Shown here: positions 8,161 through 43,200 of the stretch, in pieces
Position numbering within the stretch: position 1 is the first letter of the stretch
Layout of the letters: every line of letters begins with the position of its first letter
NCBI GenBank assembly: GCA_963668355.1
Contig: OY764265.1
Location: 1,153,317-1,217,316 of the forward strand
Direction: 5' to 3'
DNA: 64,000 nt
DNA from: Bdellovibrionota bacterium
GTDB lineage: Bacteria > Bdellovibrionota_G > JALEGL01 > DATDPG01
Translations under genes and position numbers: made by a program
Notes under the pieces: generated by a model
Databases searched by the model: none
Told to the model about the DNA's origin: nothing
Seen by the model: the letters and a program-made list of their open reading frames with translations, nothing else

Positions 8161-8230
8161 AAAGCGCGACACCCGTCGCGCAAGAGGACTCCGAAATCGT
8201 TGTTAAGAACAGCTACGTTTAAGGGAAGCA

Positions 8231-8419
8231 AATCTGAGGAAGAGTCTCTCCGCTTCGGGTTACGTTCGCTCCAAAGACTACGATCACTGCAGGCGGGGCC
8301 CCTCGTTGTCCGCCCAGCGTCAAGCATAGCTTGCCGCAGGTCGTCTCCGTTTCCCCTACCTTCCGTTCACGAGGTCTTTGGGCTCTCTTCACAGGCGCGG
8401 AGAGACTCTTCCTCAGATT
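8231..8419. repeat. Perfect 23-bp inverted repeat pair (AATCTGAGGAAGAGTCTCTCCGC and its reverse complement) flanking a 143-bp interior
   Basis: Arm 1 at 8231-8253 and arm 2 at 8397-8419 are exact reverse complements; interior shows further imperfect complementarity (CCAAAGAC / GTCTTTGG). Confidence 0.8.
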
Positions 8420-8541
8420 CGCTTTTCGTCATGAGTAATTCTTTTATCTCGCTCCCCTCGCTTGAAATCATTCATTCAAACGGAGACACCTTTTTTGTGA
8501 GAGATGTTTTTAAAGTTACCTTGGAAATGTTGAAAGGGTGG

Positions 8542-8600
8542 CCGACAGGGAAAGGGGCTCCGAGCACTGTCGGGGCGCAGCGAGCCCCTTTCCCTGTCGG
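8542..8600. repeat. Perfect 19-bp stem hairpin (CCGACAGGGAAAGGGGCTC ... GAGCCCCTTTCCCTGTCGG) with 21-nt loop
   Basis: Exact reverse-complement arms at 8542-8560 and 8582-8600; no downstream T-tract. Confidence 0.8.
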
Positions 8601-8756
8601 TCAGGACCCTCCCACAAAATCTCCTCGGCTCACTTTATGCCCAGAACGAAACTCATGCGCGACGAATGTCGCGCATTTACGGATGTCGCGCTTTTTGAGT
8701 TTGGTTTTGAAGGAAGGGCCTTGCTTACATTTCGGATCTGGGGCAGCATCGGGGGC

Positions 8757-10894: not shown

Positions 10895-11058
10895 ACGCTT
10901 TCGAATGTACCGAAACGAGGATTCGGGGTGTTGCTTTGACTTACATCCGCGATCTACCTTTGGGGTTTTGGCGAAAGACGCAGACTTGAGTCTCTTGACT
11001 TAGAGGGGGTTTGCTGTAAAAACCGGCACTTTGCGAGGTCAATCCTCCCAATTTCCAT

Positions 11059-11286
11059 ATGATGAAACGTCCCAGGTTAGAGGTTGCGGCGCAAGCGTTG
11101 GAAGCCCTTCTAATGCCGGGAATCGGGCTGATCATAGGAAATGCCTTGGACGGTCGTTGGGGGAGTTCGCCTTGGGGAGCTTTGGTGGGTGCCATCCTTG
11201 GGTTGGCGGTGTCGGCCAAAATTCTCCTCCAAATCGCAAACAGAGAAGATAAACGAAGTGGAAACCAAAACGACAACGAAAATTGA
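11059..11286 (+). CDS. AtpZ/AtpR-like small membrane protein of ATP synthase operons
   Basis: 75 aa with two hydrophobic helices, immediately upstream of atpI-atpB-atpE. Confidence 0.5.
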   Translation: MMKRPRLEVAAQALEALLMPGIGLIIGNALDGRWGSSPWGALVGAILGLAVSAKILLQIANREDKRSGNQNDNEN

Positions 11287-11305
11287 TCGAGCCAATCTGG
11301 GAGTT

Positions 11306-11626
11306 ATGCTTGCCCTGGGTGTGGTGAGTGCATTCACGCTGTCCTGGGATGTGACGATCGGGCTGGTCATCGGTTGTGCCATCATGGCTTTTGATTTTTA
11401 CTTGATGCGCGTCTTGCTGAGCCAGGTATTGTTCGGGACGAGAACCTCGGCCGGCGTGTCCATGGCGTTGCTGGTAGCAAAATTTTTAGGGCTATTTGGT
11501 TTGGTCGCGCTCTGTCTGTTTTTCATTCCCATGAACTTATTTGCATTTGGTTTGGGTGCGACGGCGGTGGTTTTAACGGCAGCCATCGTGGCTATGACCA
11601 TGCAAAAGAAAGCTCAGGAGAAATAA
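11306..11626 (+). CDS. atpI: ATP synthase protein I-like membrane protein
   Basis: About 106-aa hydrophobic protein directly upstream of atpB; ATG 11306 preceded by GGGAG; ORF-track start 11141 overlaps atpZ and is unlikely. Confidence 0.5.
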   Translation: MLALGVVSAFTLSWDVTIGLVIGCAIMAFDFYLMRVLLSQVLFGTRTSAGVSMALLVAKFLGLFGLVALCLFFIPMNLFAFGLGATAVVLTAAIVAMTMQKKAQEK

Positions 11627-11629
11627 AAC

Positions 11630-12379
11630 GTGGACCACCCCTTCACATTTTTTGAACGGTATCTTCCGGGGGTAAACCACCACAACTTGCACATGGTCAC
11701 CGCAACGTTTGTGGTTCTCCTGCTCGCCTTGGCGACGGGGATTCTTTTTCCCAGACTTCGAAAAGCAAAAGAGAACATTCTTCCGGATCGAGGGTTTTCA
11801 CTCCGGAACGGATTTGAAATTTTCATGGACATGATTCGTGGTCTTTGTGAGGACATCATTGGTTCGGATGGCCGAAAATATCTCCCCTTTATTGGAACGG
11901 TATTCTTTTTCATTTTTGGCATGAACATCATCGGAATGATTCCTGGTTTTTTGCCTCCCACGGAAAACGCAGTGACGGGCGCGGCGGTTGCGACCATTGT
12001 GTTCATCGCATTTAATTATTTTGGATTTCAGGAACACGGCCTTTCTTATTTCAAACATTTTTTAGCGCCGGTTCCGATGGGAAAACAAAAAAGCATTTTA
12101 TTCACGGCGCTGTTAGTTCCCGCCATGATTGGATTGCATAGTTTGTTTGCGGCCATTGAGGTTGTTGGCATGGCGTTTCGTCCGGTCTCTTTGTCCATTC
12201 GTTTGTACGGAAACATTTTTGGGGACCACGTGGTTTTGGGAATTTTTTCGGACTTGGTCCCGTGGCTCTTCCCCATGTGTTTTATGGTCTTGGGAATTTT
12301 CGTTTCGTTTATGCAGGCATTTATTTTTATGTTGTTAACGATTGTTTACATTTCGGGAGCTGTGGCTCACGAGCATTAG
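11630..12379 (+). CDS. atpB: F0F1 ATP synthase subunit a
   Basis: 249-aa polytopic membrane protein with subunit-a C-terminal region (LSIRLYGNIFGDHVVL); GTG start. Confidence 0.9.
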   Translation: MDHPFTFFERYLPGVNHHNLHMVTATFVVLLLALATGILFPRLRKAKENILPDRGFSLRNGFEIFMDMIRGLCEDIIGSDGRKYLPFIGTVFFFIFGMNIIGMIPGFLPPTENAVTGAAVATIVFIAFNYFGFQEHGLSYFKHFLAPVPMGKQKSILFTALLVPAMIGLHSLFAAIEVVGMAFRPVSLSIRLYGNIFGDHVVLGIFSDLVPWLFPMCFMVLGIFVSFMQAFIFMLLTIVYISGAVAHEH

Positions 12380-12397
12380 GAAAGGAGCATCGGAAAG

Positions 12398-12736
12398 ATG
12401 AAAATTTTTGGTTTATTGGTCGTTGGCTTAGTGTCGTTGGTTGCAACTGCAGCATTTGCTGAAGGAGGAGCTGAAGCGGCAGCGGCTGGCGCAGCCATGT
12501 TGGGAGATGGTGCGAAACAAGCGCTCGCGATTGGTGCGGGCTTGGGTTTGGCGTTGGCGGTTTTTGGGGGCGCTTTGGGACAATCAAAAGCAACCGCCGC
12601 AGCGGTTTCGGGCATCGCTCGAAATCCAGAATCTCGAAAAGAGCTGTTCATTCCGTTCATGTTGGGACTGGTCTTCATGGAGTCTTTGGTTCTGTACATG
12701 TTCGTTATCGCCTTTTTCTTCATGCAAAAAATTTAA
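12398..12736 (+). CDS. atpE: F0F1 ATP synthase subunit c
   Basis: Helical-hairpin proteolipid with Gly/Ala-rich helix 1 and conserved carboxylate in helix 2 (LGLVFMESLVLY); preceded by GGAAAGGAG RBS. Confidence 0.88.
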   Translation: MKIFGLLVVGLVSLVATAAFAEGGAEAAAAGAAMLGDGAKQALAIGAGLGLALAVFGGALGQSKATAAAVSGIARNPESRKELFIPFMLGLVFMESLVLYMFVIAFFFMQKI

Positions 12737-12749
12737 ACGTTGGAACATA

Positions 12750-12782
12750 GGGAGGCGTTCTCTTTCAGCGCCTCCCTTTTTT
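12750..12782 (+). terminator. Rho-independent terminator-like hairpin downstream of atpE
   Basis: 8-bp GC stem GGGAGGCG / CGCCTCCC, 11-nt loop, followed by TTTTTT (12777-12782). Confidence 0.55.
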
Positions 12783-12787
12783 GTATC

Positions 12788-13906
12788 ATGACCAAGCGCG
12801 ACTATTATGAAGTGCTCTCGGTGAGCCGCGAGTCCACACAGGCAGACATCAAAAAAGCCTATCGACAACTCGCCAAGAAATATCACCCGGATTTAAATCC
12901 GGACAACGCCGAGGCCGAAGAAAAATTTAAGGAAGCCTCCGAAGCCTATGAAGTGCTTCACGATGTCGAAAAGCGTCGCGTATATGACCAATTCGGACAC
13001 GAAGGGTTAAAAGGAAGAGGGTTTCAGGGCTTCTCCGGCGTCGATGATATTTTCTCTTCTTTTGGAGACATTTTCGATTCATTTTTCGGTTTTGGCGGAG
13101 GCCGTCGGCGAGGAGGCCCACGCCGAGGGAACGATTTAGAGATGTTGGTTGAGATTTCTTTTCGAGATGCCATTTTTGGATGTCGAAAAGAAATTGAAGT
13201 CGAACGCCAAGTTTCCTGCACACATTGCTCAGGAACTGGCGCGGAGCCCGGACACGAACCTGAAAGTTGCGGCACCTGTGGCGGCATCGGTCAAGTGCGA
13301 ACGGTTCAGGGCTTTTTCTCCATGCAAACAACCTGCCCCCATTGTCGAGGAACGGGAAAATTCATTCGAGTTCCATGTAAAAACTGTCACGGTTCTGGCC
13401 GGGGCGTGGAAAAGAAACATCTGGAAGTGGATATTCCCGCCGGTGTGGATCGAGGCATGCGGGTTCGTCTTCCAGGCGAAGGGTCTGGGGGCTTGCAAGG
13501 AGGCTCTCCTGGGGACCTGTACGTTGTTCTCGATGTTGCCGAAGACGAAAATTTTATTCGAAAAGAGGAAAACATTTTTTCGCAGCTGAACATTGGCGTC
13601 GCTCAAGCCTCTCTGGGGACAGAGGTTCGCGTGGAAACGCTTGATGGACATGAGGTCGTTGAAGTGCCTCGGGGCTCTCAAAGTGGAGATGTCATTACAC
13701 TCAACGGTAAAGGCGTCCCTCGACTCCGGCGAGGAGGACGGGGGAGTCACTTTGTCGAATTACGGGTCATGATTCCAAAGAGACTCACCAGCAAACAGGA
13801 AGAACTGCTTCGTGCATTTGCCCAAGAATCTGGGGAAAGCGTATCAGCCCCGAAAGAAGGCTTTTTGGACAAACTCAAAAGCAAAAAGAAAACCAAGAAA
13901 AAATAG
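12788..13906 (+). CDS. dnaJ: Molecular chaperone DnaJ
   Basis: J-domain [13 protein letters not shown]...YHPD, Gly/Phe-rich region, four CxxCxGxG zinc-finger repeats; ORF-track start 12740 would include the terminator hairpin. Confidence 0.92.
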
Positions 13907-13914
13907 ACAGGTTT

Positions 13915-15579
13915 TTAAAGTACGTTTTTCAAAGAAAGCAATTGTTTCGGATCATTTTCCAATTGAACCCCAACGCCCACACGGGACGAACTTTTGGGCT
14001 GAGAGTAAACCACACGACCTTTAAGTAAAATTTGTCGAAAGGTGTTTGGCAGATGAATGCGAATGAAAATCGTTTCATCATTTTCAAACGTCTTTGCAGA
14101 CTCTACGTAAAGACCGCCTTGGGAAATATTTGATTCAAACTCTTTTCGAAACTCATCCATATTTCGAAAATATAGATCCACAAAGAATCGATCAGAACTT
14201 TCTTGCGGAACCTGGCCGCATAAATCAAAAGACTCCAGCTGTGAACGAACAAAGGAATCCAAGATCTTGACATTTTCTGGTGAAATATTGGTGAACTGAA
14301 AGCCAGCAAAGGGAGAGGCGTTTCGGGAAACTTCGTAAACCAATTTACCCAACCCTGAAATGGGAGGGTGGTCTTTTCCCAAGTGAAGAACGATTCCGTA
14401 CTCTCCGCCCTCTTTTTGAGGAAGACCCTTCCACTCCACCAGCATGCCACCGCGCCCTAACTCCGCGACTGCACAAGCTCCCCGAGCTTTGTCGGAAAGA
14501 TCCACCACGTCAGCCGAAATCCCAATATGTTCTGTGGAAATGCGAGGGTGTTTGCGTTGTCCAACTTGGCCGGCCAATGATTCGACGGGGCCACTGGGAA
14601 CTTTAGGAACACGCGTTCCCGCGTTGAACTCGGAAATGGCTTGAGTCCAATTTTGATCTTTGGCAATGAGTCGTCCGACGAACGCTGGAGAAAAAAGAGA
14701 CGAAGCGTCTAAAATATTCTCCAAGGGTTTTTCGCGAAATCGAATGTGAAGCAAGGCCTCTTCAAACGCTTCAACCGTTTGAAACCGCAAGGCAGGATCT
14801 CGGTGAAGGGCCTTATTGAAGAAGATTCGAAGAGAGATCTCATCCGAACGAGAACGGACGAGATTGGAACATTCAAATTTCGGAACAGTGGCATTTCGAA
14901 CTTTGGCAATGAGATCGACTTTGTTTTCAGCTTTGAAGGGAACCGTTCCGTGGAAAAGAATAAATGCAATCACACCTAAACTATAGAGGTCCGTTACGGT
15001 GGTGAGGGGACGACCTTCTAAAATGTCGGCCGGCAAATAATGGATGCGACCAAAGGGTCGCTCCAATGGATCCGTAGAGCTTTCTTGTCCGGCGCTGCCA
15101 AAATCCGTCAGGCGAAGCAAGCCCTCTCGTGTGATCATGATGTTTTCCAAAGACAGGTCGCCATGAAACAACACAGATTGCGAATTTCGGAAAATAGAGG
15201 TGTTGTGAAGATAGCGAAGGGCGGAGCAAAGCTCCTTTATAAAATAAAGCGTGAGTGACAAGGGAGGTCGGCCGTGGTCGCGACGAAAGTCGGAAACCAT
15301 TTCGTGTAAGCTTCCCGCCAATAAAAGTTCAGAAACGGCGAAAAAAACGCCATCCACTTTTCCGTGATCCAAAATTTTCAAAATATTTGGGTGATTTAGT
15401 TTTGAGGCGATTTGGATTTCACGAATAAACGAAGCGACAATGCGAGGGACCTGGGCGCGTTCCGGTTTTAAGCATTTCACTGCAAAAGACTGATTCTCGC
15501 TCATGCCCAAATAGACATGAGACAGCCCTCCCTCCCCGATTTTGGTTAACAGTGAATATTTTCCAAGCACATTACTCAT
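13915..15579 (-). CDS. Hanks-type Ser/Thr protein kinase with C-terminal PilZ-like region
   Basis: GEGGLSHVY glycine loop, AVK lysine, HGDLSLEN catalytic loop, DFG; C-terminal 250 aa contain RxxxR-like and D-x-S-x-x-G/A-like segments suggestive of PilZ (tentative). Confidence 0.75.
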   Translation of the reverse strand: MSNVLGKYSLLTKIGEGGLSHVYLGMSENQSFAVKCLKPERAQVPRIVASFIREIQIASKLNHPNILKILDHGKVDGVFFAVSELLLAGSLHEMVSDFRRDHGRPPLSLTLYFIKELCSALRYLHNTSIFRNSQSVLFHGDLSLENIMITREGLLRLTDFGSAGQESSTDPLERPFGRIHYLPADILEGRPLTTVTDLYSLGVIAFILFHGTVPFKAENKVDLIAKVRNATVPKFECSNLVRSRSDEISLRIFFNKALHRDPALRFQTVEAFEEALLHIRFREKPLENILDASSLFSPAFVGRLIAKDQNWTQAISEFNAGTRVPKVPSGPVESLAGQVGQRKHPRISTEHIGISADVVDLSDKARGACAVAELGRGGMLVEWKGLPQKEGGEYGIVLHLGKDHPPISGLGKLVYEVSRNASPFAGFQFTNISPENVKILDSFVRSQLESFDLCGQVPQESSDRFFVDLYFRNMDEFRKEFESNISQGGLYVESAKTFENDETIFIRIHLPNTFRQILLKGRVVYSQPKSSSRVGVGVQLENDPKQLLSLKNVL

Positions 15580-20477: not shown

Positions 20478-21380
20478 ATGTCCAAATCACTTCACGGCTT
20501 ATGGGTCTTGGTTTTTCTGTTCACCACCACCGCGTTCGCGGGAAACTTGTTTGAGGGAGGTCAGGAGGTCGAATTTGATCTCATCGAACCCACGGGGCCC
20601 TGCGCAGTTGTTGACGGGAAATACCCCACCGACCCGCTCTGTTATGAAATTGCTGAGGTTCAACTCACACCGCAGGTTCGTGTTCCCTTGATGGCGTTGG
20701 AATCGGCTCGAACGCCCACCCTGAGTCAACGATCCAAGGCACCCGGACGAACGGGCGGAATTCCGGGGATGCAAGAAGCCAAAGAAATCATGAATACGAT
20801 TGATTGGTTCTGGCGATTTCTGGAAAAAAACCAAGCCAAATTGGAAGTCAATACCCAAGGACGAGCCAATGCGCTTCCCACAGCGAAAGAATGTCAAAAC
20901 TGGGAGAACATGGGAGGTTGGAATCCCACGCCCAAAGCCATTCCCTATGTTTTGAGTGCAAAGAACCCCTTTGGGATTGAAGTGGTTCGTTTGGAATACA
21001 CAATTCAGTTCACGTACGGCGGGAATTGTCTTGGAAAAGGTCAATATCTTGAAAACGTCCGCCTGGTTTACGGAAATGCGTCGGCGTCGTTGTTTTTTAC
21101 CGCAGAGGTCGATGTTGAAATTGGAGACATCGTGAACTTCGGAACGTCTGAAGCCCCCATTGCCGGCCTACAAATTCTTTCTCACAATCGCGTAAAGTCT
21201 TTGGTGAAAAGCATCAATCAGTCCACGGCGTACTATGTGATGGGAAATGGAGACTTCTCTGAGGTTATGCCCCATCGTGTGATGGGAGACGAGCCTTTCT
21301 CGGCGAGGGAAGACGGATCGAAGAAAGATTCAGCCTTGGTTGGTGACGGCTACGAGCTTCTGGATCTTAGCCAACCCTAG
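20478..21380 (+). CDS. Exported hypothetical protein
   Basis: N-terminal Sec-type signal peptide (LWVLVFLFTTTAFA); no recognisable domain. Confidence 0.5.
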   Translation: MSKSLHGLWVLVFLFTTTAFAGNLFEGGQEVEFDLIEPTGPCAVVDGKYPTDPLCYEIAEVQLTPQVRVPLMALESARTPTLSQRSKAPGRTGGIPGMQEAKEIMNTIDWFWRFLEKNQAKLEVNTQGRANALPTAKECQNWENMGGWNPTPKAIPYVLSAKNPFGIEVVRLEYTIQFTYGGNCLGKGQYLENVRLVYGNASASLFFTAEVDVEIGDIVNFGTSEAPIAGLQILSHNRVKSLVKSINQSTAYYVMGNGDFSEVMPHRVMGDEPFSAREDGSKKDSALVGDGYELLDLSQP

Positions 21381-26623: not shown

Positions 26624-27316
26624 TTATTTATCGTAGATCGAGCAATCGTCTCGATTCTCAATCAGAGTCATCCAATTGAAAGTATCTTTTTCAGGAGTTT
26701 CATATCGAAAGGAACACATGACGAACGTGGGATATTTCTCCTCGTCACATTGATACTCGTATTCCACGCGACCCAAAGAAATCAAATCCGCCGGCGTCGG
26801 GAAAGGGGCCTTGGAGGTGATTCGGATTTCTTTGTGAAATCGCCACACCTTGGACAGTTCACAGGTTTGCCCAGGATATTTTTCGGTCAAGAGGTCCAAC
26901 GCGATTTCCCGGCGTTCGGGCGTGTCGGATTGGGAATAAATTCCTGGAATCTGAAAATAAACACTGTTGAGAAACCAACAACGAGCTCCGGTTTCATCGT
27001 TTACGTAATACGCATCATTGGTGGTGCAGTAAAAAGGGGCGTAGACGGTTCCAAACTCTTTATCCTGGCATTGAACGGTGAACGAAAACCCATTGGGAGA
27101 GCGTCGATCTCCATGTTCTAATTCGTCCCAAACCACGGAACAATCTGACTTTCCACCCAGTGCATTGGCATAACGGCGAGCCTCTTCCGTACAAGAACGC
27201 CACTCATTTTCATATAATTGTTGATAACGATTCAGGGCCTCACTCGTTGGGCTGAAGGCCAAAAAAAGACCCCAAACCAAAAGAAAAGAACCGAATATGG
27301 TCTTGGTGCGTTTCAT
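26624..27316 (-). CDS. Exported cysteine-rich hypothetical protein (paralog A)
   Basis: Signal peptide; shares with the 27440-28186 product the blocks VYAPFYCT, SDTPERREIALDL, FPTP, YEYQC and seven aligned Cys. Confidence 0.6.
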   Translation of the reverse strand: MKRTKTIFGSFLLVWGLFLAFSPTSEALNRYQQLYENEWRSCTEEARRYANALGGKSDCSVVWDELEHGDRRSPNGFSFTVQCQDKEFGTVYAPFYCTTNDAYYVNDETGARCWFLNSVYFQIPGIYSQSDTPERREIALDLLTEKYPGQTCELSKVWRFHKEIRITSKAPFPTPADLISLGRVEYEYQCDEEKYPTFVMCSFRYETPEKDTFNWMTLIENRDDCSIYDK

Positions 27317-27439
27317 CTTGGATTCCGGAGATGGCTTCTAACACCAACTAACGCGCCCCGTCAAACCGAATTTTTAACATCTGAAAATGGGCTACGGTTA
27401 AGCAAAATGATCCATGCCTTGGGTTTGCAGAAGTTTACT

Positions 27440-28186
27440 TTAATGGAGTTGGCAGAAATTAAAATCTTCGGTGAAGGCAAACAATTGATCTTCTTCGGTT
27501 TCTCTTGGGTTCTGAGAATTGGCCCTGATCCGATCCCCGCCCGTTTCGACGTCTAAGCTTTCTTCTTGAGATTCTTTAAAAAGGTAAAAACATCGAATGT
27601 GAATAGACTTAGGCTCGCCCTCACATTGATATTCATAATCCACATCGCCAAGCTTTTCGAGCTGAGAAGGAGTTGGGAAGGGAGGAAATTTGGAAATGCG
27701 GATTTCATAGTGGGAATAAAGAACCCGTTGGAAATGACATGCTTCATGCGGAAAATGCTGCTCAACCAAATCAAGGGCCAATTCACGACGTTCCGGCGTG
27801 TCCGAAGGCCAGTACACACCGCTAAGAAAGAAGCGTCCCGCTCCGCCAATCCAGCAGTGGGCCTTTTTTTCTTCCTGAAAGCTGAAATTTTTCTCGGCTG
27901 TGCAAAAGATGGGTGCGTAGACATCTCCATAAGAATCATCCATGCACTGAACGGTGAACCACATGCCACGCTTAGATGAGTTCAGCAAATACTCGGATTG
28001 ATCCCAGACGATTTTACAATGGGATAAGCGGTCAAAGGAGTTCGAAAAATGCAAAGCCTCGTCCCGATAGATCCCTCTCAAGGCGGAGAGATCAAGCTGG
28101 GCGGGCTCAGCCAAAACCGAAAGCGCGAAGGTCCATAGGCCGACGAAGAGAAAAAGGACCGCAGGTCTGGAGAAAGACAGTTTCAT
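27440..28186 (-). CDS. Exported cysteine-rich hypothetical protein (paralog B)
   Basis: Signal peptide; same conserved blocks as paralog A; acidic C-terminal extension. Confidence 0.6.
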   Translation of the reverse strand: MKLSFSRPAVLFLFVGLWTFALSVLAEPAQLDLSALRGIYRDEALHFSNSFDRLSHCKIVWDQSEYLLNSSKRGMWFTVQCMDDSYGDVYAPIFCTAEKNFSFQEEKKAHCWIGGAGRFFLSGVYWPSDTPERRELALDLVEQHFPHEACHFQRVLYSHYEIRISKFPPFPTPSQLEKLGDVDYEYQCEGEPKSIHIRCFYLFKESQEESLDVETGGDRIRANSQNPRETEEDQLFAFTEDFNFCQLH

Positions 28187-28322
28187 ACAAATTGGCCTGA
28201 AAACCGCCTTCTACCATCGCCTAACGCAAAACGTCAATTTCTATTTTTCACACCCCTCTTATGTGCGCCGGAAGAGGATAGGGCGTATAAATCAACCCAG
28301 AGGGAGTCGACTTAACCTATTT

Positions 28323-28348
28323 TTAAGAATTCATTTATAAGTTCTTAA
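28323..28348. promoter_or_regulatory. Candidate operator palindrome in a divergent promoter region
   Basis: TTAAGAA (28323-28329) N12 TTCTTAA (28342-28348) in the AT-rich interval between divergent genes. Confidence 0.2.
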
Positions 28349-28387
28349 TACTTCACAGATATATCTGGGTTCGCAAGGTAGATATTT

Positions 28388-29488
28388 ATGTCGAAGGGGG
28401 ACTCTAAAAAAATTCTACTTACACTCTTTGGAGTGGCTTGTCTCTATCCGCTTTCCGCCTCTGCAAATCTTTACACTCAGCTTCGCGATACGGTTGTTCC
28501 TCAAGCCAAAGTGGTTCCGGCCGTTCAAAGCGAAATCGGTCGAACGGCTCGGCAGTTAACAGCCATTTCAAACCGATATGAGGCTGCCGGAATTTTTCCC
28601 CATGACATGGGCGATGTTTTCAAAAATGCTTTCGCAGGTGGGCGCATTCAAGGACATCAACCCAAATTTTCCCAAGCGTTTAGTCGATACGGAAAGTCCA
28701 TCGGCTTTGAAACTTCAAATGGGTTTTCCTTTTTGGTTCCCTCTTTTGAACGAAGGGGAACGCTCCCGTTTGAAAAATGTGAAAATGGCCCCTCCCTCTC
28801 CGATCTTTTGATGCATGTAGCTCAAATTGAGACAGGGGATGCGAAGGCCGAACTCGAGGAAATTCACTTTGTCCACACGCCTGAAATGTCTGCATCTACC
28901 GCAAGCATTCTGTACGCCGCTGAATATTGTTCTTCGGATCGTTTGGTTTATGCAAGTGCAAATGGCGAAATGAAAGACTTGGTCGAGCGGGTGCGAAGAG
29001 TCATGGGAAGAAATCCCAAGCGGCCCCTTGGAAATGAAGCCGTCATCCCAGAGCGCCTAATCTCGGCGCTTGAAAGTGTGTATCAGTTGCAAGAGATACA
29101 GGTTCCTGATCTCGAAACCTACGACCGATTTTCCGGCTTCGACTTTTCCGAGAGTGGCACCATGCAGGACGTTGTGGATATGGCCATGGATTATCTAGAG
29201 GAAGTGAGCCGTTTGCTGGAAGAGGTGAGTTCTCCCTCTATGGATGCTTCTCGCAGTTATCGAAAAACGAGGACGTATTTAGAAATCGTCGCTCCGGCCA
29301 TGTTGACGACGATTGAGTCCAAGTATCGAACCTTGTTATCGATTCGAAATCCTGAAATCGCCCCCAGCGTGCAAAAATTTCGAAAATTTCGCCAGAAACA
29401 TAATCGTCTCATGGATCATCTCACGGAACATCGCCGTGTTCAGTGGAATGACTTTCTGCGTGGCGTTTCCCTCCACCCCCAAGGGTAA
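28388..29488 (+). CDS. Exported hypothetical protein
   Basis: 366 aa; signal peptide ILLTLFGVACLYPLSASA; no recognisable domain. Confidence 0.55.
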   Translation: MSKGDSKKILLTLFGVACLYPLSASANLYTQLRDTVVPQAKVVPAVQSEIGRTARQLTAISNRYEAAGIFPHDMGDVFKNAFAGGRIQGHQPKFSQAFSRYGKSIGFETSNGFSFLVPSFERRGTLPFEKCENGPSLSDLLMHVAQIETGDAKAELEEIHFVHTPEMSASTASILYAAEYCSSDRLVYASANGEMKDLVERVRRVMGRNPKRPLGNEAVIPERLISALESVYQLQEIQVPDLETYDRFSGFDFSESGTMQDVVDMAMDYLEEVSRLLEEVSSPSMDASRSYRKTRTYLEIVAPAMLTTIESKYRTLLSIRNPEIAPSVQKFRKFRQKHNRLMDHLTEHRRVQWNDFLRGVSLHPQG

Positions 29489-29518
29489 AAAGAGCATAAA
29501 TATTAGGTTGTTGTAAAA

Positions 29519-32500
29519 ATGAAACGGGTCGTAAAGGAGAGGTTGGCTTTTATGACGCAGTGTGGTAAACCGCGCTCGAATCAAGGGACTATGCTAAGGG
29601 TGAGGTTTAAAAAGATAATTCTATTTTTTGTGGTGGTCTTGGGACTGCCTTGCTTGGCCGTGGCCAGTCAGGCCCCCAAATCCATTCCGGATGAAGGTCG
29701 CCTTACGAAAGAAATTTCCATTGAACGCTTCAACGGAGCGACGAAAGTCGTCATTGCTCCGGATTTATTACGAAAATGGGACGGAAAACTCACGGAGGAC
29801 AGCAAACTCGTCTTGGCGGAGGTCCTTATTTATCGGAAGCGAACCGTACAAATCCTTCTCGAAGCCCTGGATCGCCTACGATTCTTGGCCTTAGCCTTGG
29901 GAGAAACCGCATACCAAGACCCTTCCTTAGCCATGCCGGACGATTTGGCCATGGTCCTAGACCGCGCGTTTGATCCACGTCAATTTGGTGATCTCATGGG
30001 AGGCGTCGGTTGGCTCCGTAATCCGCTTGCCCAAGGCGCGGAGTTTGATCCCGTGGTCATGGATGCATTTTGGCGAGATATTCTGGAGCGGTCTATCGGA
30101 GTGGTCCATCGAGAATCACAAAAAGCCTTTTACGAACGCTACCGCGGAGTGGATGAGGTCATTGATGAGTCGGTGAGCTTGGAGGAAAACCTAGGTGAGT
30201 ATTGTCGCCGCACGCGCGATGAAATCGATCAATCCAAGGCGGTCTCACAATCCATCGAAGCGAGAAACCAAGAGGCCAGGACGCTGCTCTATGACATCGA
30301 TGGAAATGCCTACGAAGGAGAGCGACTTCTTTTTACGCCCCTTCATTATGGCAAGACCTTTCTTCCCAATGAAATTTATCGCGAGAAGGTTCGCCCCATT
30401 CTTCGGGACATCAATACGCTTCGACAATACCCGGGCAAGGGTCGAGATGATGGCTACTTGGCCAACTTCTTTGTCGCGTTGGCCCTCAATGAATTGTCGG
30501 AGAAGCATGGTTTCGATATACGCCTGGCGACGGAGAGTCAGCCGCGCTCCAGTTTGATCTGTGCGGCGTGGGATGAAATTCCCTTTGATCAACTCGACGA
30601 CGAATTTTTTGTCCGAAATTCGGAGCATTTTCGGACAGCTTTTCTGGCGGCAATTCAAGAGGCCATCCGCCTGCATCAACATGTATTGGTGTACTTATTG
30701 GATTTACATGCGCCTTCCCGCTTTGGCGGCGTCGTCTCGTTTGCTCAATCCGTTACCCGGACCATCAGTCGCGTGTTTAAAAACGACTACCTGCCTTACC
30801 CAGACAACCCCCTCGACATTATCCAAAAACTCTCCGTTCTGGCTGCCATCTTCCAGGGGGCACCCGATCTCATGGAAGAAGTCAGGGCCGAGAATCCAAT
30901 GGATAAAGTCTCCTGGGAAAATTTGCAGAACTGTCTCCGAGAGGAATTTGAGCAATACCAAGTTCGCTTGGAGGGTGATGAACGTCTCAAAGCGTTTAAC
31001 TCGATTGGTTATGTGGGCATGGCCGCCACCATGGTTACCCGGTCTTGGATTCCCACGATTATCATGGTTGTGAATGATGCCTTCATTACGTTTACGATCA
31101 CACGTCCTCGAATGCACTATCGGCAGAATTTGACGAAGTTGTATCAGTCCATGTTTTTGAATGTTGACCCCCAATGGGTCCTGGCCAACGAAGCAAAAAT
31201 AAAACTGGATGTGCATGACCACGCGGACAAACTTCGCGACTTGGTCGTTTTAGACGCTCAAGCGTCCCAAGAATTTCGAAATGCCTGTGGCTGGATGCTG
31301 GGGTTCGGAACGTTCTGGGCCTTTCGAGGCATCAAATGGTTCAATGGCATGTGGCGCTGGGTTCAGGGTGCCGTCAGTCCGGAAAAATATATTGTGAGTT
31401 CGGGATCCAATATGTTCGAACTTCGCAAGGAAGTCATGCGCACGGTCAAAGCCATCTATCAACTTTTTGATGAAAAAATGCTTGTGGACGGAAAGGGCCG
31501 GCGAATTGAAGTCATTGGGGCTTTTCGTAAACAAGGCTGGTGGAAAGAGGTTTGGGAAAGAGCCTATTCTTTCATACCCAATGATCTCACGATCATTCAA
31601 CGCGAGTTTCCTCAAGTCTATCGAAGGTTAGCCCGAGAGTTTAGAAAACTTCACTTACATATAGAGAATCCGGAAGACATCACAAAGTTTTTGGCCCACC
31701 ACGAAAAGGGAGAAGGGTTTTCCCTTTGGTCCCTGGCACAAGAACTCAAATTGGCTAGCCGTGCGGATATCGAAGATTGGGCACGTCGCATGGATAGCTC
31801 GGACGTGGAAGATTTCATCCAACATGCGGGCCAACGTGTGGAAGGAAGAGTTCGCTTCAATCAACTTCACAAACTTCGGATTCGTCGCGAGGGATTTCGA
31901 ATAAAAATCGAGGCGCCCAGAATGCCTGCGCCACCTCTTCAGCCGGCATCCACGGCACAGCAGGCACGGAACAGTCAAAATGTTTTGGCAACGCTCAACG
32001 AAAGATACCAGGTCGCACGCAGACAATTGGCAGCGGACCTTAAAGGTCTCAAAGTTTATGCAGAAGCGGAAGATGATGTCGTCGGGCGCGCGGGAGAATA
32101 TCATTTTAAGAAAAAAGAGATTCAACATGTTCACAATATTCAAAAGACACTTCGGGATTTAGAACACTTATTGGATCCGGTTACCCGCCATAGAGATCGA
32201 AGCGCCCCTGGGGTGGAGCGCACAGCAAAACTTCTCCTTGCCATTGGTAGACCCTTTGAAAAACCCGTTCATGCCAGCCAAGAATTTGTATTTCAAGCCG
32301 TTAGAACCATGTCCGCTTGGATCGGCGTTTATCTTGACCTCAGCCTCGCCATGCGCATGAAGCGCATGATCCCTCCAGGAGCACTTTCTCAAGTGATGAG
32401 AAATGCCATTGCGCAAAAAGTTGAGCGTGTGCCGGGGCTACGACCGTTTGCCGATGCTGTACGCAAAGGAAAGGATTGGATCACCGTAGGCAAAGATGGA

Positions 32501-33415
32501 ATCGCGAGTGGAATCGCCAAGGCCGATGACGTGGCCGAGGAGTTCGCTCGAAAAAAATGGAAACTCAATATTGATGAAAGTTTTGTTTCTACATTTATTG
32601 GAGACAGCGTCATTCTCGGATTGATCACCGGATTTGTGGGTGATCGCCTGTATCGTATGGGAGAAGTAACGTGGCAAAACCGAAGCGATGGGTATGGGGC
32701 GGCACTAAGTGAAGGTGCGGATGCTTTGCTCGTTAATCCCTTCAATTTGGGGGATGCTCACGAGGGGGAAGAGACGAGAATCAACCTTGTTACGGGCATG
32801 GTGCGTCGTGCGTACACCACGTTTTTCATGACTTCGGCCTTAAGTTTTCGAAAGAAAATGATGTGGGTCAACCTGGGTGGCGCCGCAGTTGAAGGCCTCA
32901 CCACCGCCGCGACCAACCTCTACGGTCTTACACATGGCGATGACGCCCTTGACTTCGAGGATGCCCTGGCAACATTGGTTTCACCCGAATGTCTCATCGC
33001 CATCGCCAAGCGCTTAAACCTTGGGTACATCTACAACAACTTCTACGCCCTGTGGCATAAGCAAGCCTATTGGAAAGTCCGACACGCCATGCGCAGTCCC
33101 ATGATGAATCGTTCGATGTACGACGTGTTTGTACTTCGTCTGGGCTGGTCAACCGTCTTAGGCAAGGCAGGATTCACCGGTGCAACTCATTTGTTTGATG
33201 CGCCAGGGGAATGCGCTCCGGTGGACCACCCGTTTGAAGAACTTTCGGTCAAGGGTAACGACCCTCGCATGAGCTTTGCGTTCCAACAAACCGCAGACGA
33301 ATTGGATGCTTTGACGATCAACGATTGGATGGATTTGCAAGAAGAACTCGAAGCCGAAGGCGTAGAAATTGATGAAACATTGGGCATGGAAGAGTTTGAG
33401 GGAGACGTCGAATGA
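29519..33415 (+). CDS. Large exported hypothetical protein (1298 aa)
   Basis: N-terminal hydrophobic signal/anchor (IILFFVVVLGLPCLAVA, likely start near 29591); Gly/Ala-rich hydrophobic segments near C-terminus; acidic tail; no known catalytic motif found. Confidence 0.6.
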   Translation: MKRVVKERLAFMTQCGKPRSNQGTMLRVRFKKIILFFVVVLGLPCLAVASQAPKSIPDEGRLTKEISIERFNGATKVVIAPDLLRKWDGKLTEDSKLVLAEVLIYRKRTVQILLEALDRLRFLALALGETAYQDPSLAMPDDLAMVLDRAFDPRQFGDLMGGVGWLRNPLAQGAEFDPVVMDAFWRDILERSIGVVHRESQKAFYERYRGVDEVIDESVSLEENLGEYCRRTRDEIDQSKAVSQSIEARNQEARTLLYDIDGNAYEGERLLFTPLHYGKTFLPNEIYREKVRPILRDINTLRQYPGKGRDDGYLANFFVALALNELSEKHGFDIRLATESQPRSSLICAAWDEIPFDQLDDEFFVRNSEHFRTAFLAAIQEAIRLHQHVLVYLLDLHAPSRFGGVVSFAQSVTRTISRVFKNDYLPYPDNPLDIIQKLSVLAAIFQGAPDLMEEVRAENPMDKVSWENLQNCLREEFEQYQVRLEGDERLKAFNSIGYVGMAATMVTRSWIPTIIMVVNDAFITFTITRPRMHYRQNLTKLYQSMFLNVDPQWVLANEAKIKLDVHDHADKLRDLVVLDAQASQEFRNACGWMLGFGTFWAFRGIKWFNGMWRWVQGAVSPEKYIVSSGSNMFELRKEVMRTVKAIYQLFDEKMLVDGKGRRIEVIGAFRKQGWWKEVWERAYSFIPNDLTIIQREFPQVYRRLAREFRKLHLHIENPEDITKFLAHHEKGEGFSLWSLAQELKLASRADIEDWARRMDSSDVEDFIQHAGQRVEGRVRFNQLHKLRIRREGFRIKIEAPRMPAPPLQPASTAQQARNSQNVLATLNERYQVARRQLAADLKGLKVYAEAEDDVVGRAGEYHFKKKEIQHVHNIQKTLRDLEHLLDPVTRHRDRSAPGVERTAKLLLAIGRPFEKPVHASQEFVFQAVRTMSAWIGVYLDLSLAMRMKRMIPPGALSQVMRNAIAQKVERVPGLRPFADAVRKGKDWITVGKDGIASGIAKADDVAEEFARKKWKLNIDESFVSTFIGDSVILGLITGFVGDRLYRMGEVTWQNRSDGYGAALSEGADALLVNPFNLGDAHEGEETRINLVTGMVRRAYTTFFMTSALSFRKKMMWVNLGGAAVEGLTTAATNLYGLTHGDDALDFEDALATLVSPECLIAIAKRLNLGYIYNNFYALWHKQAYWKVRHAMRSPMMNRSMYDVFVLRLGWSTVLGKAGFTGATHLFDAPGECAPVDHPFEELSVKGNDPRMSFAFQQTADELDALTINDWMDLQEELEAEGVEIDETLGMEEFEGDVE

Positions 33416-35925
33416 AATATCTTAAACTCACCTTGATCGTGGTTTCCGTTCTTATTGGATGTACCTATGTCCAGAGTGTTGATGCACGCCCTCGTGCAAA
33501 TCGTCAAACGGAAGCCGAAAAAGTCGGAGGTCTTTATCCCCTTACCCCCGAACTTCGTAGCCAGATCTCCACACTCATTGGCATGGCTAGATTTGGTTTG
33601 GGATATAAAAACACAGCCATTCATACTTCGGTCACGAACCCTGCCACGAATCCGTCCTACTACAATGATCTTCTTTATGGCGCCGTACACGCAGGAAGCG
33701 CTGTGCGCGTGCCCAACCGCATCAAAGAGCCCACGCTCTATCATATCAACCATCTCCGACAGGATCTGGGTGCCGAGTATGAGTTGCTGTATTGGAGCGA
33801 AGAAGCGCGCAAGCTTGGCTTCATCACCTCCGTGCGAATGTTAAAGGAATCAGAGGAATATCTTTGGGCGTCGAAGGCCGATCAGCAAGCCATGGAACTG
33901 AACTTAGCCAATCAATATGCCGTTTCTACGGTTCCCAGAGTCACTGAAGCTTTGGAAGAGGTGCGGAAGACAGCTCGCTACGCGGAAGCGGTTGAACGCG
34001 ACGATAAAGGCAGAATCGCTCAATTGGAACTTTGGACGCGTATCAATGCTCTGTATGCGATTTTGCAAGAAACCCGAGCCTATCAAAAAGCACCCAGCTG
34101 GAAGCAGAAAGCCATGGAAGAATTGATTCTGGCCAAAGAGCGCCAAGGTCTCATGAGTGCTTTCCTTCACTTTCGCATTCCCATGTTTCAAATTCCGGTG
34201 GACGGTCTTTCCTCGAATGAAATCGAGGAACTTCTCTTGGAAATGAATCAGGCTTTTCCAGAACACCACCCCTATGTGTTTGAGGTGAAGGATGGTGTGT
34301 TTCAAGGTTGGTTAGATTTAACCGAGCTTTTGCTCATGCGTTCGATGCTGTATCGCACGCGTCTTCCTTGGGAAGACAACACGCTCTCGGAAACATCCGA
34401 TCTCCCGGTGCTGGACCAAATCGCTTTGGGATCGACCCTCACGCACCAAGCGGTCCACATGACCGCGCCCATTCTACAGAATTGGGCGCAAGGTGTGGTC
34501 GCAACGACAACGGCAGCGGACCTTGCGGCATACGAAGGAGCGAGCAGCGCCATTCAATTTTTGGGAGATCGCTATCGTGAAATGCCTCTGCGAGCGCGCA
34601 CTGGAATGTTGGCGCGGACCCTGGTTCCCCGCTTGCCAATATTGAAAGGGCTCTATCTGGAGAATGCGGAGTGGGCCAAGATTGCGGCGGCCATATTTAC
34701 TCGCGCGCAGAAAGAAAGCACGAAAGCCGCGGCGGGGTTTGTTACCACCAAACTCAAGGCCCTGGGAGGCGTAGCCTTACGAAATTCAGCCCTTTTTGGT
34801 CTGGCACTGGTAATTGCGATAGATGCCTATCAGGTCTACCGCGCCGGCCAAGACGCTGGCTCGCCTCAAATGCAAGCCGAGGCGTTTGGAAACTTAGCCG
34901 TTCATTTGGCTGAAGGATTTGGGGCAAGCATGCTCATCAAGGCTTTAGCGGGCGCGGAAATGGTTCAAGTTACGGCAGGTATGGGTTTGGCCCAAGCAAC
35001 GGGTGCGATGCTCACGGCCGCCCTCACCAATCCCGTAACCTGGATCATTGTTCTGGGAATTGTCGCGACGGAAGTGATTCAGCGAAACTGGTATCCGGAC
35101 ATGATTACAATTGGCGTGGTTCGTCAATATGGACAGGCCTTTTTTGCCGATATGTGGAGAACCGTAGCGGACGACTTAATTCGCAGCAAAATCTGCGGAC
35201 GAAACCTTGTGATGGAGCAGTGGCAAAAGAAAGTATGTCTTAAGAAAGAGGAAGGCGGAGATTGGGAGCCTCGCACGTTTTCCTTTTTGGATTATCGCGT
35301 TCCACCTCAGGCCTTCATGGAAATGAACCCAGAGCAGCAGCGAGAAAACCGACGGCTGTATGTCTTGGACTTGGACCATTTTGAGGGATCCGTGGAAGAA
35401 ATCCTTACCTATCCTCCCATTGATCGAGCGGAAGCCTTAGACACTTTAGTAAAGGGCTATGCCGTGGCCTATTTAGAGCGGATGTTTTTCACGCTTCAAT
35501 TCCTAGGAGATGTCAACGTGAACCACTTTAAAGGACTCTTCGAAGAGATTGGTTTGTTGGCTTCGTCTGCTTCAATCGTTCCGGTCGATTTTGAGACGCA
35601 TGTGGCCAAATACGAGACGAAGGACCGCCTAGAAGTAAGAAGCGCGCTGCAGACCGAGCTGGAAGAGTTTGTGGGGCGCGCCGAGGGGCTCGAAAAAGAG
35701 TACGGTCGAAACCTTGTCTTCGGGTCGATTTCCGATGATATGATGCGGCGTTTGACTGGCTTGACGGATGAAGCAATTCTTGTTTTAGAGAACTGCTTTG
35801 ACCTCGAAGGCGAAGATGGGGAAATGCGTGCACGAAAACCTTGTATTCCCACGCCAATTGAGGAAAAAGCCTTGGAAGCTTTGTACGAACAAAGAGATCA
35901 AACAGAGCGGCACTGGTTGAAATAA
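33412..35925 (+). CDS. Large hypothetical lipoprotein (837 aa) with central Gly/Ala-rich hydrophobic helices
   Basis: Lipobox-like LIGC signal; ATGA overlap with upstream gene; central segments (GFGASMLIKALAGA, AGMGLAQATGAMLTAALT) resemble glycine-zipper membrane helices. Confidence 0.6.
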   Translation: MKYLKLTLIVVSVLIGCTYVQSVDARPRANRQTEAEKVGGLYPLTPELRSQISTLIGMARFGLGYKNTAIHTSVTNPATNPSYYNDLLYGAVHAGSAVRVPNRIKEPTLYHINHLRQDLGAEYELLYWSEEARKLGFITSVRMLKESEEYLWASKADQQAMELNLANQYAVSTVPRVTEALEEVRKTARYAEAVERDDKGRIAQLELWTRINALYAILQETRAYQKAPSWKQKAMEELILAKERQGLMSAFLHFRIPMFQIPVDGLSSNEIEELLLEMNQAFPEHHPYVFEVKDGVFQGWLDLTELLLMRSMLYRTRLPWEDNTLSETSDLPVLDQIALGSTLTHQAVHMTAPILQNWAQGVVATTTAADLAAYEGASSAIQFLGDRYREMPLRARTGMLARTLVPRLPILKGLYLENAEWAKIAAAIFTRAQKESTKAAAGFVTTKLKALGGVALRNSALFGLALVIAIDAYQVYRAGQDAGSPQMQAEAFGNLAVHLAEGFGASMLIKALAGAEMVQVTAGMGLAQATGAMLTAALTNPVTWIIVLGIVATEVIQRNWYPDMITIGVVRQYGQAFFADMWRTVADDLIRSKICGRNLVMEQWQKKVCLKKEEGGDWEPRTFSFLDYRVPPQAFMEMNPEQQRENRRLYVLDLDHFEGSVEEILTYPPIDRAEALDTLVKGYAVAYLERMFFTLQFLGDVNVNHFKGLFEEIGLLASSASIVPVDFETHVAKYETKDRLEVRSALQTELEEFVGRAEGLEKEYGRNLVFGSISDDMMRRLTGLTDEAILVLENCFDLEGEDGEMRARKPCIPTPIEEKALEALYEQRDQTERHWLK

Positions 35926-40287: not shown

Positions 40288-43200
40288 TTGGCGGGGAAGT
40301 TTCGTATGAAGACCAGAGATCTGTTGACCAAGGTGTTGTTTTCTTTCCTTTTTGGGCTTTTGGCTTTTTCAGGACAAAGCTTTGCCCAACCGGTATGGCC
40401 ACATTATTTTCAAAATCTTCACCCGAAGGTTTCCTCCACCGAAACCCAATATCTTCTGAGAGAGTTTGCCGATGAATGTGCGGCCCTGGACGTTCTCGGC
40501 TCTCAGCGCTACATCAGTTGGCAAAATCGCGGGACCTCAAGAAAAGATCGAGCGTTGGAGGAAGAATTCGATCAAGCTTTTGAAGAGCTCAAACAATTGA
40601 GTTTTGACATCGTTGATCGCCTGGAGCCCTCCGAACTTTTTCTTTTGCTTCAACAATTTCCGTCTCTGGCCTCGCGCTTGGGAATTCCACAATACGCACA
40701 CAATTTGGTTTCGATGGTCAGCATCGGGAGACCCAAGTTCGGAATTGGCGAACTGGAAAAATTCGTTCGCCATCGCACGCTCGTGCGCTTTCTGGAATTT
40801 TCGGAGGAGGAAGATCCCGAATTTGTCGCGTGGCTCTTAGAGATGTTGATCAAGGCGGAGGCCCATTGGGAGTTGTATGGGAATCTTCTAGCGCGAATGG
40901 ATGCTCTTGAAAGTCAGCGGCAGTACTTGGGCTATACGAACGATGAAAAAATAGACGAATTGAGAAGACACACCGAGTTTTATCAAAAGGCAAAGCCTCA
41001 ATTGGCTAGAGAAATTTTGGAATTGAAAAGGGCGACCGATCATCCCCGTTATGAAGCGTGGTTGAATTTGGCGCAAACCTATTTAGATGAATCTCCGGAC
41101 CTTCCGCAAAACATCGGTGAAGGTTTTGGTCTCCCTTTCTATTATGGTTTTCGTTCGGGCTTAGACAGTCTGGCCAGCGTCTTCCATCGTTTTGTTCTGA
41201 AAGATCCAAAGAAAGCCAGTGAAGCGACACATAATGCCGTCAAGTGGCACGAGCGCGCGTTTGCCAGCTCTCATTATTCTGGACTTCGTATGGACCGGCT
41301 TTTAAAGGGCGCAACCTTCCGTCCCGAAAACAGCCCCACTTTAGTTGGCGCAGGGGCCTCTGAAACTTTTTTGGGCGTTTTTGCTTGGCTGGGAACCGCA
41401 AGCGGTCACATCATGGAAGGGGATATCGGACAAGGGGCCAAGGTTCTTTTCATTGATTTTGCCGATGGGCTGTTTTCGTTGGCGGCGGCGCGCGACGACT
41501 TTGTCGAAGACTGGGCCGAGGTCGCTCAAATGCGATTGCAGGCGCAACTCATTGAGGATGAAACGATTCGTCAAGAAAAGATCATTCAAGCCGGCCAAAT
41601 GGCCTTGGCCAATCGACAAAACGGATATTTCAATCCCCATTATTCCGCGCCTTATGCCATCGGTGCGGTGATGGGAGCCAAAAAGGCATTTCGTTTGATG
41701 GTGGTTCCAATTCGATATCTTCGCTCTTTAAATCCTCGGATTCAGGAAGCCCAAGCCCGAGCAGGGCTGGAAACTTCTTCACGAGGAGGTCAGGGTTTTG
41801 AATGGAAACCCTTAGACGAACAGTCTCGAATACAAGTAGAAAGCCTCATTGAAAGTCTCCGAAAATCTGAAAATGCGGAATTGCAGGCCTTGATCCAAAA
41901 TGTGGAAAAAGGCGAACCTCCAGCCGGTCTATTTCCGGATGAAGGCGGAAGCGCAGCTCCTTCTCTTTCGCCACGCCGAGGAAGTGGCGGAGGTGGACCC
42001 GCAACGCTCGTCGAGTCTCGTCCCACGACGGGCTCACAAACTTCCACATCAACCTCTGTGGGTCAAAGCGCACGCACCCTTCAGCCATCACAGCCCTCTC
42101 CCTCCCAAGGGCCGGTCGCCCAGATTCAAACTCCGACGCAAATCGCTCAAGGTCTCGTCGTCGGAAATGTTGAACTCTTACATGCGAATGAAAATGAAGG
42201 TGAGGAAACCAGCGGGGAGGAAAGCTCATCGGAATTCATTGAACGTTTAACGCGCGAAGTTCGTGAATTACAGAAGCGATTGTTCGATTTCATTCCAGCT
42301 CTGGCTGAAACATTCGGCAGCTTTGAAAACTGGGTTCTGAAAGGCATGCCCCTACCTAGAGAAAGCGAGTTGCATGTTCGAGAAATTCGTCGCTCGATTC
42401 AATTGCCACCTCCTTCTCCCGAGACTATTCCCGATCAACTCATCTTCAACTCGCCAGAATATTTTCGTTGGCTTTTTACAGCCGTCGAAGCCTTAGACAA
42501 AGCCGAGCAAGAAGCTCTAACCGACGCGCTTCAAGGGCTAAACCTCATGACGGAGAGGGGCGGAGATGTCGCGTCCGACGCCACGCGCTTAAGTCAAATT
42601 TTTCAGGGTGTTTCAACCCTCAACTTAAGCGACTTTGATGGAACTCGTTCGCGCCTAGAAGATTTGGGAGAAGCGCGCAATACAGAAGTCGATCAACGCG
42701 CGGAAGAACTCCATGAACTGGAAGCCAACTTGGGCCTACATACGGTAAAAGTTTCGGGAAGACCGCTGGTTTGGCCGGAAATAGGATTGCTTGGTAGTTC
42801 TCAGGCCTCTCCACCACTCGCCATTGGAGAAGCCGGAGCGGCCATGGCTATTGATGGTGTGCCCTCGGAAGAATATCAAGGCTTCATTGATCAGCGTTCA
42901 GGTTTCAATCGTAGTGAACTCGATTTACAAATTCGCATTTTACTCTCGGCCATGGTGTTGCACGGCGAGTTTTTGGAAGCCTGGCGGCCTCAAGCTCAAA
43001 ACGGAGTGACACACAAAATTGCCTATGACGTTAAGCTCAAAGATGACAGCGACGGCGAAACGATTTTAAAACTTCAATTATGGCTTCAGGAAGTCGTAGG
43101 TGAGCGTGCCAAAGTTGTGCAAAGCCATTTCATTGAAGCTGAAAATGTAGGCCATAAAAATGTTTATCGCATTGACATCGTTCCGGGGGATAAAGCCGAC

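Follow-up and report, generated by a model that had tools for sequence, protein, structure and literature searches.

A tandem pair of exported, cysteine-rich orphan proteins and their predicted two-module, cystatin-like fold

What might two adjacent bacterial genes do that code for small, exported, cysteine-rich proteins and have no relatives but each other? The question is raised by two minus-strand paralogs, A and B, in the 64,000-nt stretch of DNA analysed here (the window, in whose positions all coordinates are given). A and B are real genes, the products of an old tandem duplication, and both open reading frames (ORFs) have exactly the coordinates and strand reported for them in the original prediction. 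As for their role, we tentatively favour the possibility that each is exported, consists of two disulfide-stapled modules and inhibits extracytoplasmic hydrolases or protects against them. The two genes are as follows.

26624..27316, minus strand: coding sequence (CDS) of paralog A, 230 amino acids (aa), 9 Cys, exported; supported by the ORF, paralogy, Cys positions and coding signature
27440..28186, minus strand: CDS of paralog B, 248 aa, 8 Cys, exported; supported by the ORF, paralogy (E 2e-47) and coding signature

The tandem pair, its relatives and its expression

The paralogy of A and B, already proposed in the original prediction, is borne out at both the protein and the DNA levels. The two proteins align by BLASTP over 171 residues without a gap, with 39% identity, 58% positives and an E value of 2e-47, and their most conserved motifs form direct repeats in the DNA, always 876 bp apart, the footprint of a tandem duplication. 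Identity between the two genes is 0.53, 0.66 and 0.32 at codon positions 1, 2 and 3, respectively, and the proportion of non-synonymous differences (pN, 0.42) is lower than that of synonymous ones (pS, 0.79), which is saturated. These values indicate that A and B are genuine coding genes under purifying selection and that the duplication is old. The pair has not expanded further: no third copy or fragment was found by tblastn in the window, and an exhaustive search retrieved none from any genome, which sets the paralog count at two.

That exhaustive search, run with HMMER and a profile of A and B on 1.84 billion representatives of approximately 15 billion proteins, returned exactly two matches, A and B themselves, within the limited reach of a two-sequence profile. 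As the nearest genomes are distant (GyrB 70-76% identical), fast-evolving exported relatives could have drifted beyond the range of such a profile. A word-index search of 5.8 billion proteins returned the query alone, a weak result given that this tool is insensitive enough to have missed the 39%-identical paralog. No families were assigned to A or B in Pfam-A (hmmscan), NCBIfam, PADLOC or PHROGs, even at E <= 1, and a sequence profile search of the PDB gave 0 matches at E <= 10. Nucleotide and pattern scans of species-representative GTDB genomes and of JGI metagenomes, the latter scanned twice and also with a codon-degenerate DTPERRExALDL pattern, revealed no relatives, nor did pattern and tblastn searches of viral contigs, plasmids and phages. 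With no PADLOC or PHROGs family and no phage or plasmid tblastn match, nothing places the pair in anti-phage defence or phage families. Homology to a characterised housekeeping periplasmic family, the finding that the original prediction itself named as speaking against it, was absent from every library and database searched, and its label 'unknown function' is still accurate. At current sampling, these searches define A and B as a true orphan family with two members.

Orphan status despite an old duplication with saturated synonymous divergence (dS) would fit rapid divergence, as expected if A and B were secreted effectors or toxins aimed at prey, competitors or a host and engaged in an arms race. 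The nearest labelled relatives of the GyrB protein of the window might point in the same direction. They come from metagenome-assembled genomes (MAGs) of Bdellovibrionales (68% and 63% identity), Bdellovibrionota (66%) and Oligoflexia (64%), groups known for predation. However, this placement is weak, since the labelled Bdellovibrionota hits, at 63-68%, are barely above Binatia (62%), and the closest sequences, 70-76% identical, are unlabelled or 'Pseudomonadota' MAGs. The GyrB-based affiliation with Bdellovibrionota/Oligoflexia is tentative, and the mechanism proposed below is not made to rest on a predatory lifestyle. In addition, no toxin or enzyme motif, secretion-system gene or immunity-gene partner was detected in or near the pair, and, with pN below pS in the pairwise comparison, positive selection is not apparent at this resolution. 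We consider an effector role unlikely.

Both proteins begin with signals for export by the Sec machinery and cleavage by signal peptidase I (SPase I):

28109..28186, minus strand: signal peptide of B, aa 1-26, MKLSFSRPAVLFLFVGLWTFALSVLA, predicted SPase I cut after VLA (SVLA/EP)
27236..27316, minus strand: signal peptide of A, aa 1-27, MKRTKTIFGSFLLVWGLFLAFSPTSEA, predicted SPase I cut after SEA (TSEA/LN)

In each, Lys or Arg residues within the first seven positions form a basic n-region, followed by a hydrophobic core of 16-19 residues and by small residues at positions -3 and -1; by sequence inspection, neither a lipobox nor a twin-arginine motif is present at either N-terminus. The hydrophobic segment 7-29 of B has a Kyte-Doolittle score of 2.16. 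These calls are rule-based, combining sequence inspection and a hydropathy scan rather than a trained predictor, and by the same rules the expectation of signal-peptide proteins of some 230-250 aa agrees with the actual 230 and 248 aa. Mature B is predicted to have approximately 222 residues, a mass of 26 kDa and an isoelectric point (pI) of 4.9, and mature A approximately 203 residues, 24 kDa and a pI of 4.75; both are acidic and rich in aromatic residues. An uncleaved signal anchor is, strictly speaking, conceivable in either protein.

The Cys residues are at positions 57, 81, 95, 111, 150, 188, 199 and 245 in B and 42, 59, 83, 97, 113, 152, 190, 201 and 225 in A. Seven of them are aligned within the ungapped core, the number initially noticed, and an eighth, close to the C-terminus, joins them if room is made for an acidic insertion of 22 residues in B. 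Cys42 of A is an extra residue with no partner in the alignment, located in predicted helix 1. No CxxC motif was seen on inspection of either sequence.

Each gene is preceded by a copy of a conserved, promoter-like block:

28208..28252, minus strand: promoter-like block upstream of B, TGTGAAAAATAGAAATTGACGTTTTGCGTTAGGCGATGGTAGAAG, ending 21 nt before the ATG
27335..27379, minus strand: promoter-like block upstream of A, TGTTAAAAATTCGGTTTGACGGGGCGCGTTAGTTGGTGTTAGAAG, ending 18 nt before the ATG

These 45-nt blocks are identical at 31 of their 45 positions, a score reached by none of 2000 shuffled controls, and share the consensus TGTnAAAAAT-N5-TTGACG-N4-GCGTTAG-N7-TAGAAG. Synonymous sites have been randomised between A and B, yet the blocks have been retained, and the DNA farther upstream is unrelated. 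The motif occurs at these two sites only in the window. It includes a -35-like TTGACG and a weak -10 element (TAGAAG); a sigma-70 scan of the minus strand called no canonical promoter and did not call the block site, and the sigma-54, sigma-28 and extracytoplasmic function (ECF) sigma factor consensus sequences gave no convincing match. The arrangement is consistent with a promoter that has TTGACG as its -35-like element and is followed by a short leader. Each paralog thus appears to have its own maintained promoter, and the two are probably co-regulated.

Might A and B nevertheless be spurious or decaying ORFs, or belong to the propionyl-CoA carboxylase/methylmalonyl-CoA mutase operon located downstream? 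The carboxyltransferase gene starts 63 bp downstream of A and is followed on the same strand by genes for a biotin carboxylase, a biotin carrier and a methylmalonyl-CoA mutase, all of cytoplasmic metabolism. No convincing terminator lies in these 63 bp; neither there nor between B and A did we find a structure better than those of shuffled sequences. Moreover, A and B lack a Shine-Dalgarno motif, but, judged at the ORF starts used, so do approximately half of the window's genes. Transcripts may to some extent read through into the carboxylase/mutase operon, although this is implausible in functional terms. No plausible role can be seen for exported disulfide proteins next to cytoplasmic biotin enzymes. 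The strong conservation at the protein level, the intact frames and the retention of signal peptides, Cys residues and upstream blocks all argue that the ORFs are neither spurious nor decaying, and we regard this explanation as very improbable.

Predicted fold and candidate function

AlphaFold was run on full-length B and on A without its signal peptide, with the two-sequence alignment as input. The models are of low confidence overall, with a mean predicted local distance difference test score (pLDDT) of 56.8 for B and 53.2 for A, and they agree on the order of elements: a helix, three long strands plus a short fourth one, a linker, a second helix, three further long strands and a last strand at the C-terminus. 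Helix 2 and the core strands of module 2 have pLDDT values of 80-87 in both models, and module 1 is weaker. The predicted modules are laid out as follows.

27806..28108, minus strand: B predicted module 1, aa 27-127; helix 33-49; strands 54-63, 74-83, 87-96 and 110-113; Cys 57, 81, 95 and 111; AlphaFold, pLDDT mostly 45-75
27443..27805, minus strand: B predicted module 2, aa 128-248; SDTPERRE N-cap, helix 131-144; strands 150-163, 177-188 and 195-205; acidic 22-aa insertion; strand 238-247; Cys 150, 188, 199 and 245
26930..27235, minus strand: A predicted module 1, aa 28-129; extra Cys42 in helix 1; order of elements as in B; pLDDT < 60
26627..26929, minus strand: A predicted module 2, aa 130-230

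Foldseek comparison of the models with the PDB gave no significant match. Among the non-significant ones, phytocystatin scaffolds, NTF2, latexin and fetuin-B recurred, with alignments of 70-93 residues that correspond to one module. Nearly all of these belong to a single fold class of SCOP, cystatin-like, in which a helix is packed on a curved antiparallel sheet. Structure prediction, suggested at the outset as a check, thus yielded low-confidence models resembling this class and nothing significant in the PDB. Taken together, the models lend moderate support to a cystatin-like fold class and a two-module layout for A and B.

The Cys residues occupy equivalent places in both predicted modules, namely where strand 1 starts, where strand 2 ends and on strands 3 and 4. 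The geometry of an antiparallel meander would allow bridges 57-81, 95-111, 150-188 and 199-245 (B numbering), and each module would then probably be pinned by two disulfides. The original idea of a disulfide-stabilised extracytoplasmic fold that arose by tandem duplication fits everything measured; its disulfide part stands as a putative pairing.

Conservation between A and B is unevenly distributed over the predicted elements. The highest values, 64-100% identity, belong to strands 2 and 3 in module 1, to the SDT cap with helix 2 (together SDTPERRE.ALDL) and to strand 2' (YEYQC); PFPTP, the first hairpin loop of module 2, has 54%, and the remaining loops and strand 3' have 0-20%. In the models, the PFPTP loop may be the topological equivalent of the first inhibitory hairpin of cystatins, and, with the SDTPERRE helix cap, it is the surface that we would propose as functional. 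Through the diverged loops, each paralog could acquire a specificity of its own.

It is tempting to combine these elements into a mechanism. Each paralog would be transcribed from its own retained copy of the 45-nt block, exported by Sec and released by SPase I into the periplasm or the medium as an acidic protein of 24-26 kDa. It would fold as two consecutive modules, each a helix with an antiparallel sheet, in a latexin-like arrangement of the cystatin-like fold class. A and B would then bind other proteins outside the cytoplasm, most likely secreted or periplasmic hydrolases, either as tight-binding inhibitors or in a protective, immunity-like partnership. The functional surface common to the two paralogs would consist, in module 2, of the invariant SDTPERRE/ALDL helix cap and the PFPTP hairpin loop, and the diverged loops would make their specificities differ.

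A role in inhibition is indirectly suggested by the fold class, which holds many protein inhibitors, including cystatins, latexin, fetuin-B and PepSY. Several observations weigh against it. The same class also contains proteins that are not inhibitors (NTF2, VirB8), scaffolds and ligand binders; we found no inhibitor motif in A or B, no target gene and no informative neighbour; and the internal repeat expected of a two-module protein received no support from BLAST of the two halves or from hhalign of half-profiles (probability 0.07%). We keep the internal duplication at the level of topology, as the models suggest it. Of the effector, inhibitor or immunity-like roles first put forward, what stands is the likeness of low-confidence models to an inhibitor-rich fold class; a motif, target or informative neighbour to back them did not emerge, and membership of that class is shared with non-inhibitors.

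Given the composition of the fold class, A and B might instead be NTF2-, VirB8- or PepSY-like periplasmic scaffolds or binders of small ligands or lipids, maybe held at the inner membrane by an uncleaved signal anchor. We find this doubtful. The predicted modules, with one helix, three to four strands and approximately 75-100 residues, are below the size of the usual NTF2 cone, a cone-shaped alpha+beta barrel of approximately 120-140 aa. There are no type IV secretion genes nearby and no SnoaL, NTF2 or PepSY hidden Markov model (HMM) matches at E <= 1, and both signal peptides have good -3/-1 cleavage sites.

If the cystatin-like fold and the inhibitory role hold true, the pair would be a bacterial, disulfide-rich, two-module addition to hydrolase inhibitors of the cystatin/latexin style, and a handle on the control of extracellular enzymes in a poorly sampled lineage. 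Irrespective of function, it stands as a clear case of a true orphan family, with two members and none elsewhere in approximately 15 billion proteins, under selection and with its own conserved regulatory element, and it is thereby amenable to structural work and to the search for binding partners. Secreted hypothetical proteins restricted to one lineage are frequent in isolated genomes, and the pair opens no long-standing question; its interest will be modest until a structure or a partner is found.

Genomic neighbourhood

On its other side the pair borders large exported proteins, as had been noted:

28388-35925, plus strand: three orphan exported proteins of 366, 1298 and 837 aa, divergent from B across 201 bp

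A signal peptide is present in the 366-aa protein and in the 1298-aa one, whose start is probably Met25 and which has a further hydrophobic segment near residues 1022-1041; the 837-aa protein combines a lipobox (LIGC) with two hydrophobic segments. The genes of the latter two overlap by ATGA (33412-33415). For none of the three did Pfam, NCBIfam, PADLOC or the PDB provide a lead to a target or partner, and the word-index search, with its insensitivity, found no relative of the 1298-aa protein. The window proteins looked up all come from one contig of 2,922,492 bp and, at 90% identity, are singletons, save that the 837-aa protein has a cluster mate, a 32-aa ENA peptide (P0006, L085-L087). We rejected it as a spurious cluster member, since it has no BLAST similarity to the 837-aa protein and adjoins transposase genes.

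It could be proposed that A and B are accessory or structural partners of these three orphans in a lineage-specific envelope or surface assembly. The divergent genes share the 201-bp intergenic region, and the five exported orphans form one 9.3-kb block (26624-35925) of native-like composition. However, the link is positional, none of the genes has relatives, and the block upstream of A and B is missing in front of the 366-aa gene, which has different palindromic elements. On balance, we are sceptical of a joint assembly, and the genomic context neither supports nor contradicts a functional link of the pair to its neighbours. The base composition and codon-position GC content of the 9.3-kb block match those of core genes, no tRNA or Rfam matches were found in the window, and no mobile-element families among the larger ORFs scanned; thus, nothing marks the block as foreign.

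The palindromic elements lie 20-65 nt upstream of the 366-aa gene. One is a 26-nt near-palindrome (TTAAGAATTCAT-TT-ATAAGTTCTTAA) at 28323-28348 and the other a perfect 12-nt palindrome (CAGATATATCTG) at 28356-28367. Both are possible operator sites, distinct from the block shared by the paralogs.

Other features of the window were recorded in passing. Two more small orphan signal-peptide proteins, of 300 aa (20478-21380, plus strand) and 167 aa (52584-53087, minus strand), have four Cys residues each; they match no family and are unrelated to A and B by BLAST. The window starts with the origin-region genes dnaN, recF, gyrB and gyrA. Locus L081 (GCA_964397255.1; GyrB 70% identical) is syntenic from dnaA to dnaJ (window 1-13906 versus L081 1-22451), and the compared flank ends approximately 13 kb before the pair; L081 has extra genes absent from the window, namely vapBC between gyrB and gyrA, SIR2 and Oxidored_molyb/Ferric_reduct genes. 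A Ser/Thr protein kinase with a C-terminal PilZ domain of the cyclic di-GMP-binding type (13915-15579, minus strand) adjoins a class A penicillin-binding protein. At 40288-48647, a gene of unusual architecture codes for a 2083-aa protein whose N-terminus is signal-like and which combines a weak HAD-IIB-like region with a GT4 (sucrose-phosphate-synthase-like) glycosyltransferase domain; convergent with it is a gene for an equally unusual 703-aa fusion of a GT4 glycosyltransferase and a phosphoribulokinase/uridine-kinase-like domain. At 53614-59127 (minus strand), a 693-aa multihaem cytochrome with c7/c3-type repeats is encoded between a 656-aa 4Fe-4S and cyclic-nucleotide-binding protein and a 484-aa signal-peptide orphan. 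As for the carboxyltransferase downstream of A, its relatives are at most approximately 70% identical and scattered over many phyla.

Comparison with known inhibitors and related folds

One of the closest analogies in design is with latexin/TIG1 (MEROPS I47, PF06907, PDB 2bo9), whose two consecutive cystatin-like modules A and B may share, at a similar chain length. Latexin, of approximately 220 residues, is made of two topologically equivalent cystatin-like subdomains, and its two Cys residues are not disulfide bonded (PMC2212644). The models of A and B show H-E-E-E-(E) twice, with low confidence for module 1. However, they have no sequence similarity to latexin and no Pfam match at E <= 1, and one module alone superposes (80-92 residues). 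Furthermore, latexin is a cytosolic vertebrate protein, unlike A and B, which are exported bacterial proteins with 8-9 Cys residues, eight of them conserved.

Cystatins (MEROPS I25, PF00031; type 2, fetuins and kininogens) are defined by the QxVxG motif in the first hairpin loop and PW in the second (PMC2784779). Both motifs are absent from A and B by regular-expression scan, and the two proteins differ further from cystatins in having no Cystatin HMM match at E <= 1 and in bearing their Cys residues on different strands. In overall design they are comparable to multi-domain cystatins and tandem PepSY proteins. The PepSY proteins (YpmB, YpeB and the M4 peptidase propeptides) nevertheless have shorter modules without the Cys pattern of A and B, which have no PF03413 match. 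As for NTF2-like and VirB8-like domains, they are usually single, larger domains with several helices and often a membrane anchor, and A and B have no sequence match to them in Pfam or NCBIfam. Without a Cystatin, Latexin, PepSY or NTF2-type HMM match and without QxVxG or PW, A and B should not be filed in any of these families.

The proposed role has a parallel, at the level of concept only, in the self-protection of Bdellovibrio by Bd3460, an exported inhibitor that protects the cell producing it against the hydrolases which that cell secretes (PMC4686830). Bd3460 adopts an ankyrin-repeat fold, and its gene is next to that of the endopeptidase it targets, in contrast with A and B, whose predicted fold is different and which have no adjacent target gene. 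One may go further and imagine a lineage-restricted new family of disulfide-stapled, two-module, cystatin-like exported proteins that serve, under a dedicated promoter element and in an under-sampled bacterium akin to Bdellovibrionota/Oligoflexia, as paralog-specific inhibitors or in self-protection against secreted hydrolases, a bacterial counterpart of the latexin/cystatin design without traceable sequence ancestry. In this full form the proposal is speculative, and we would not expect all of it to hold. With respect to the known systems, A and B form a new sequence family, whose architecture is probably a familiar one.
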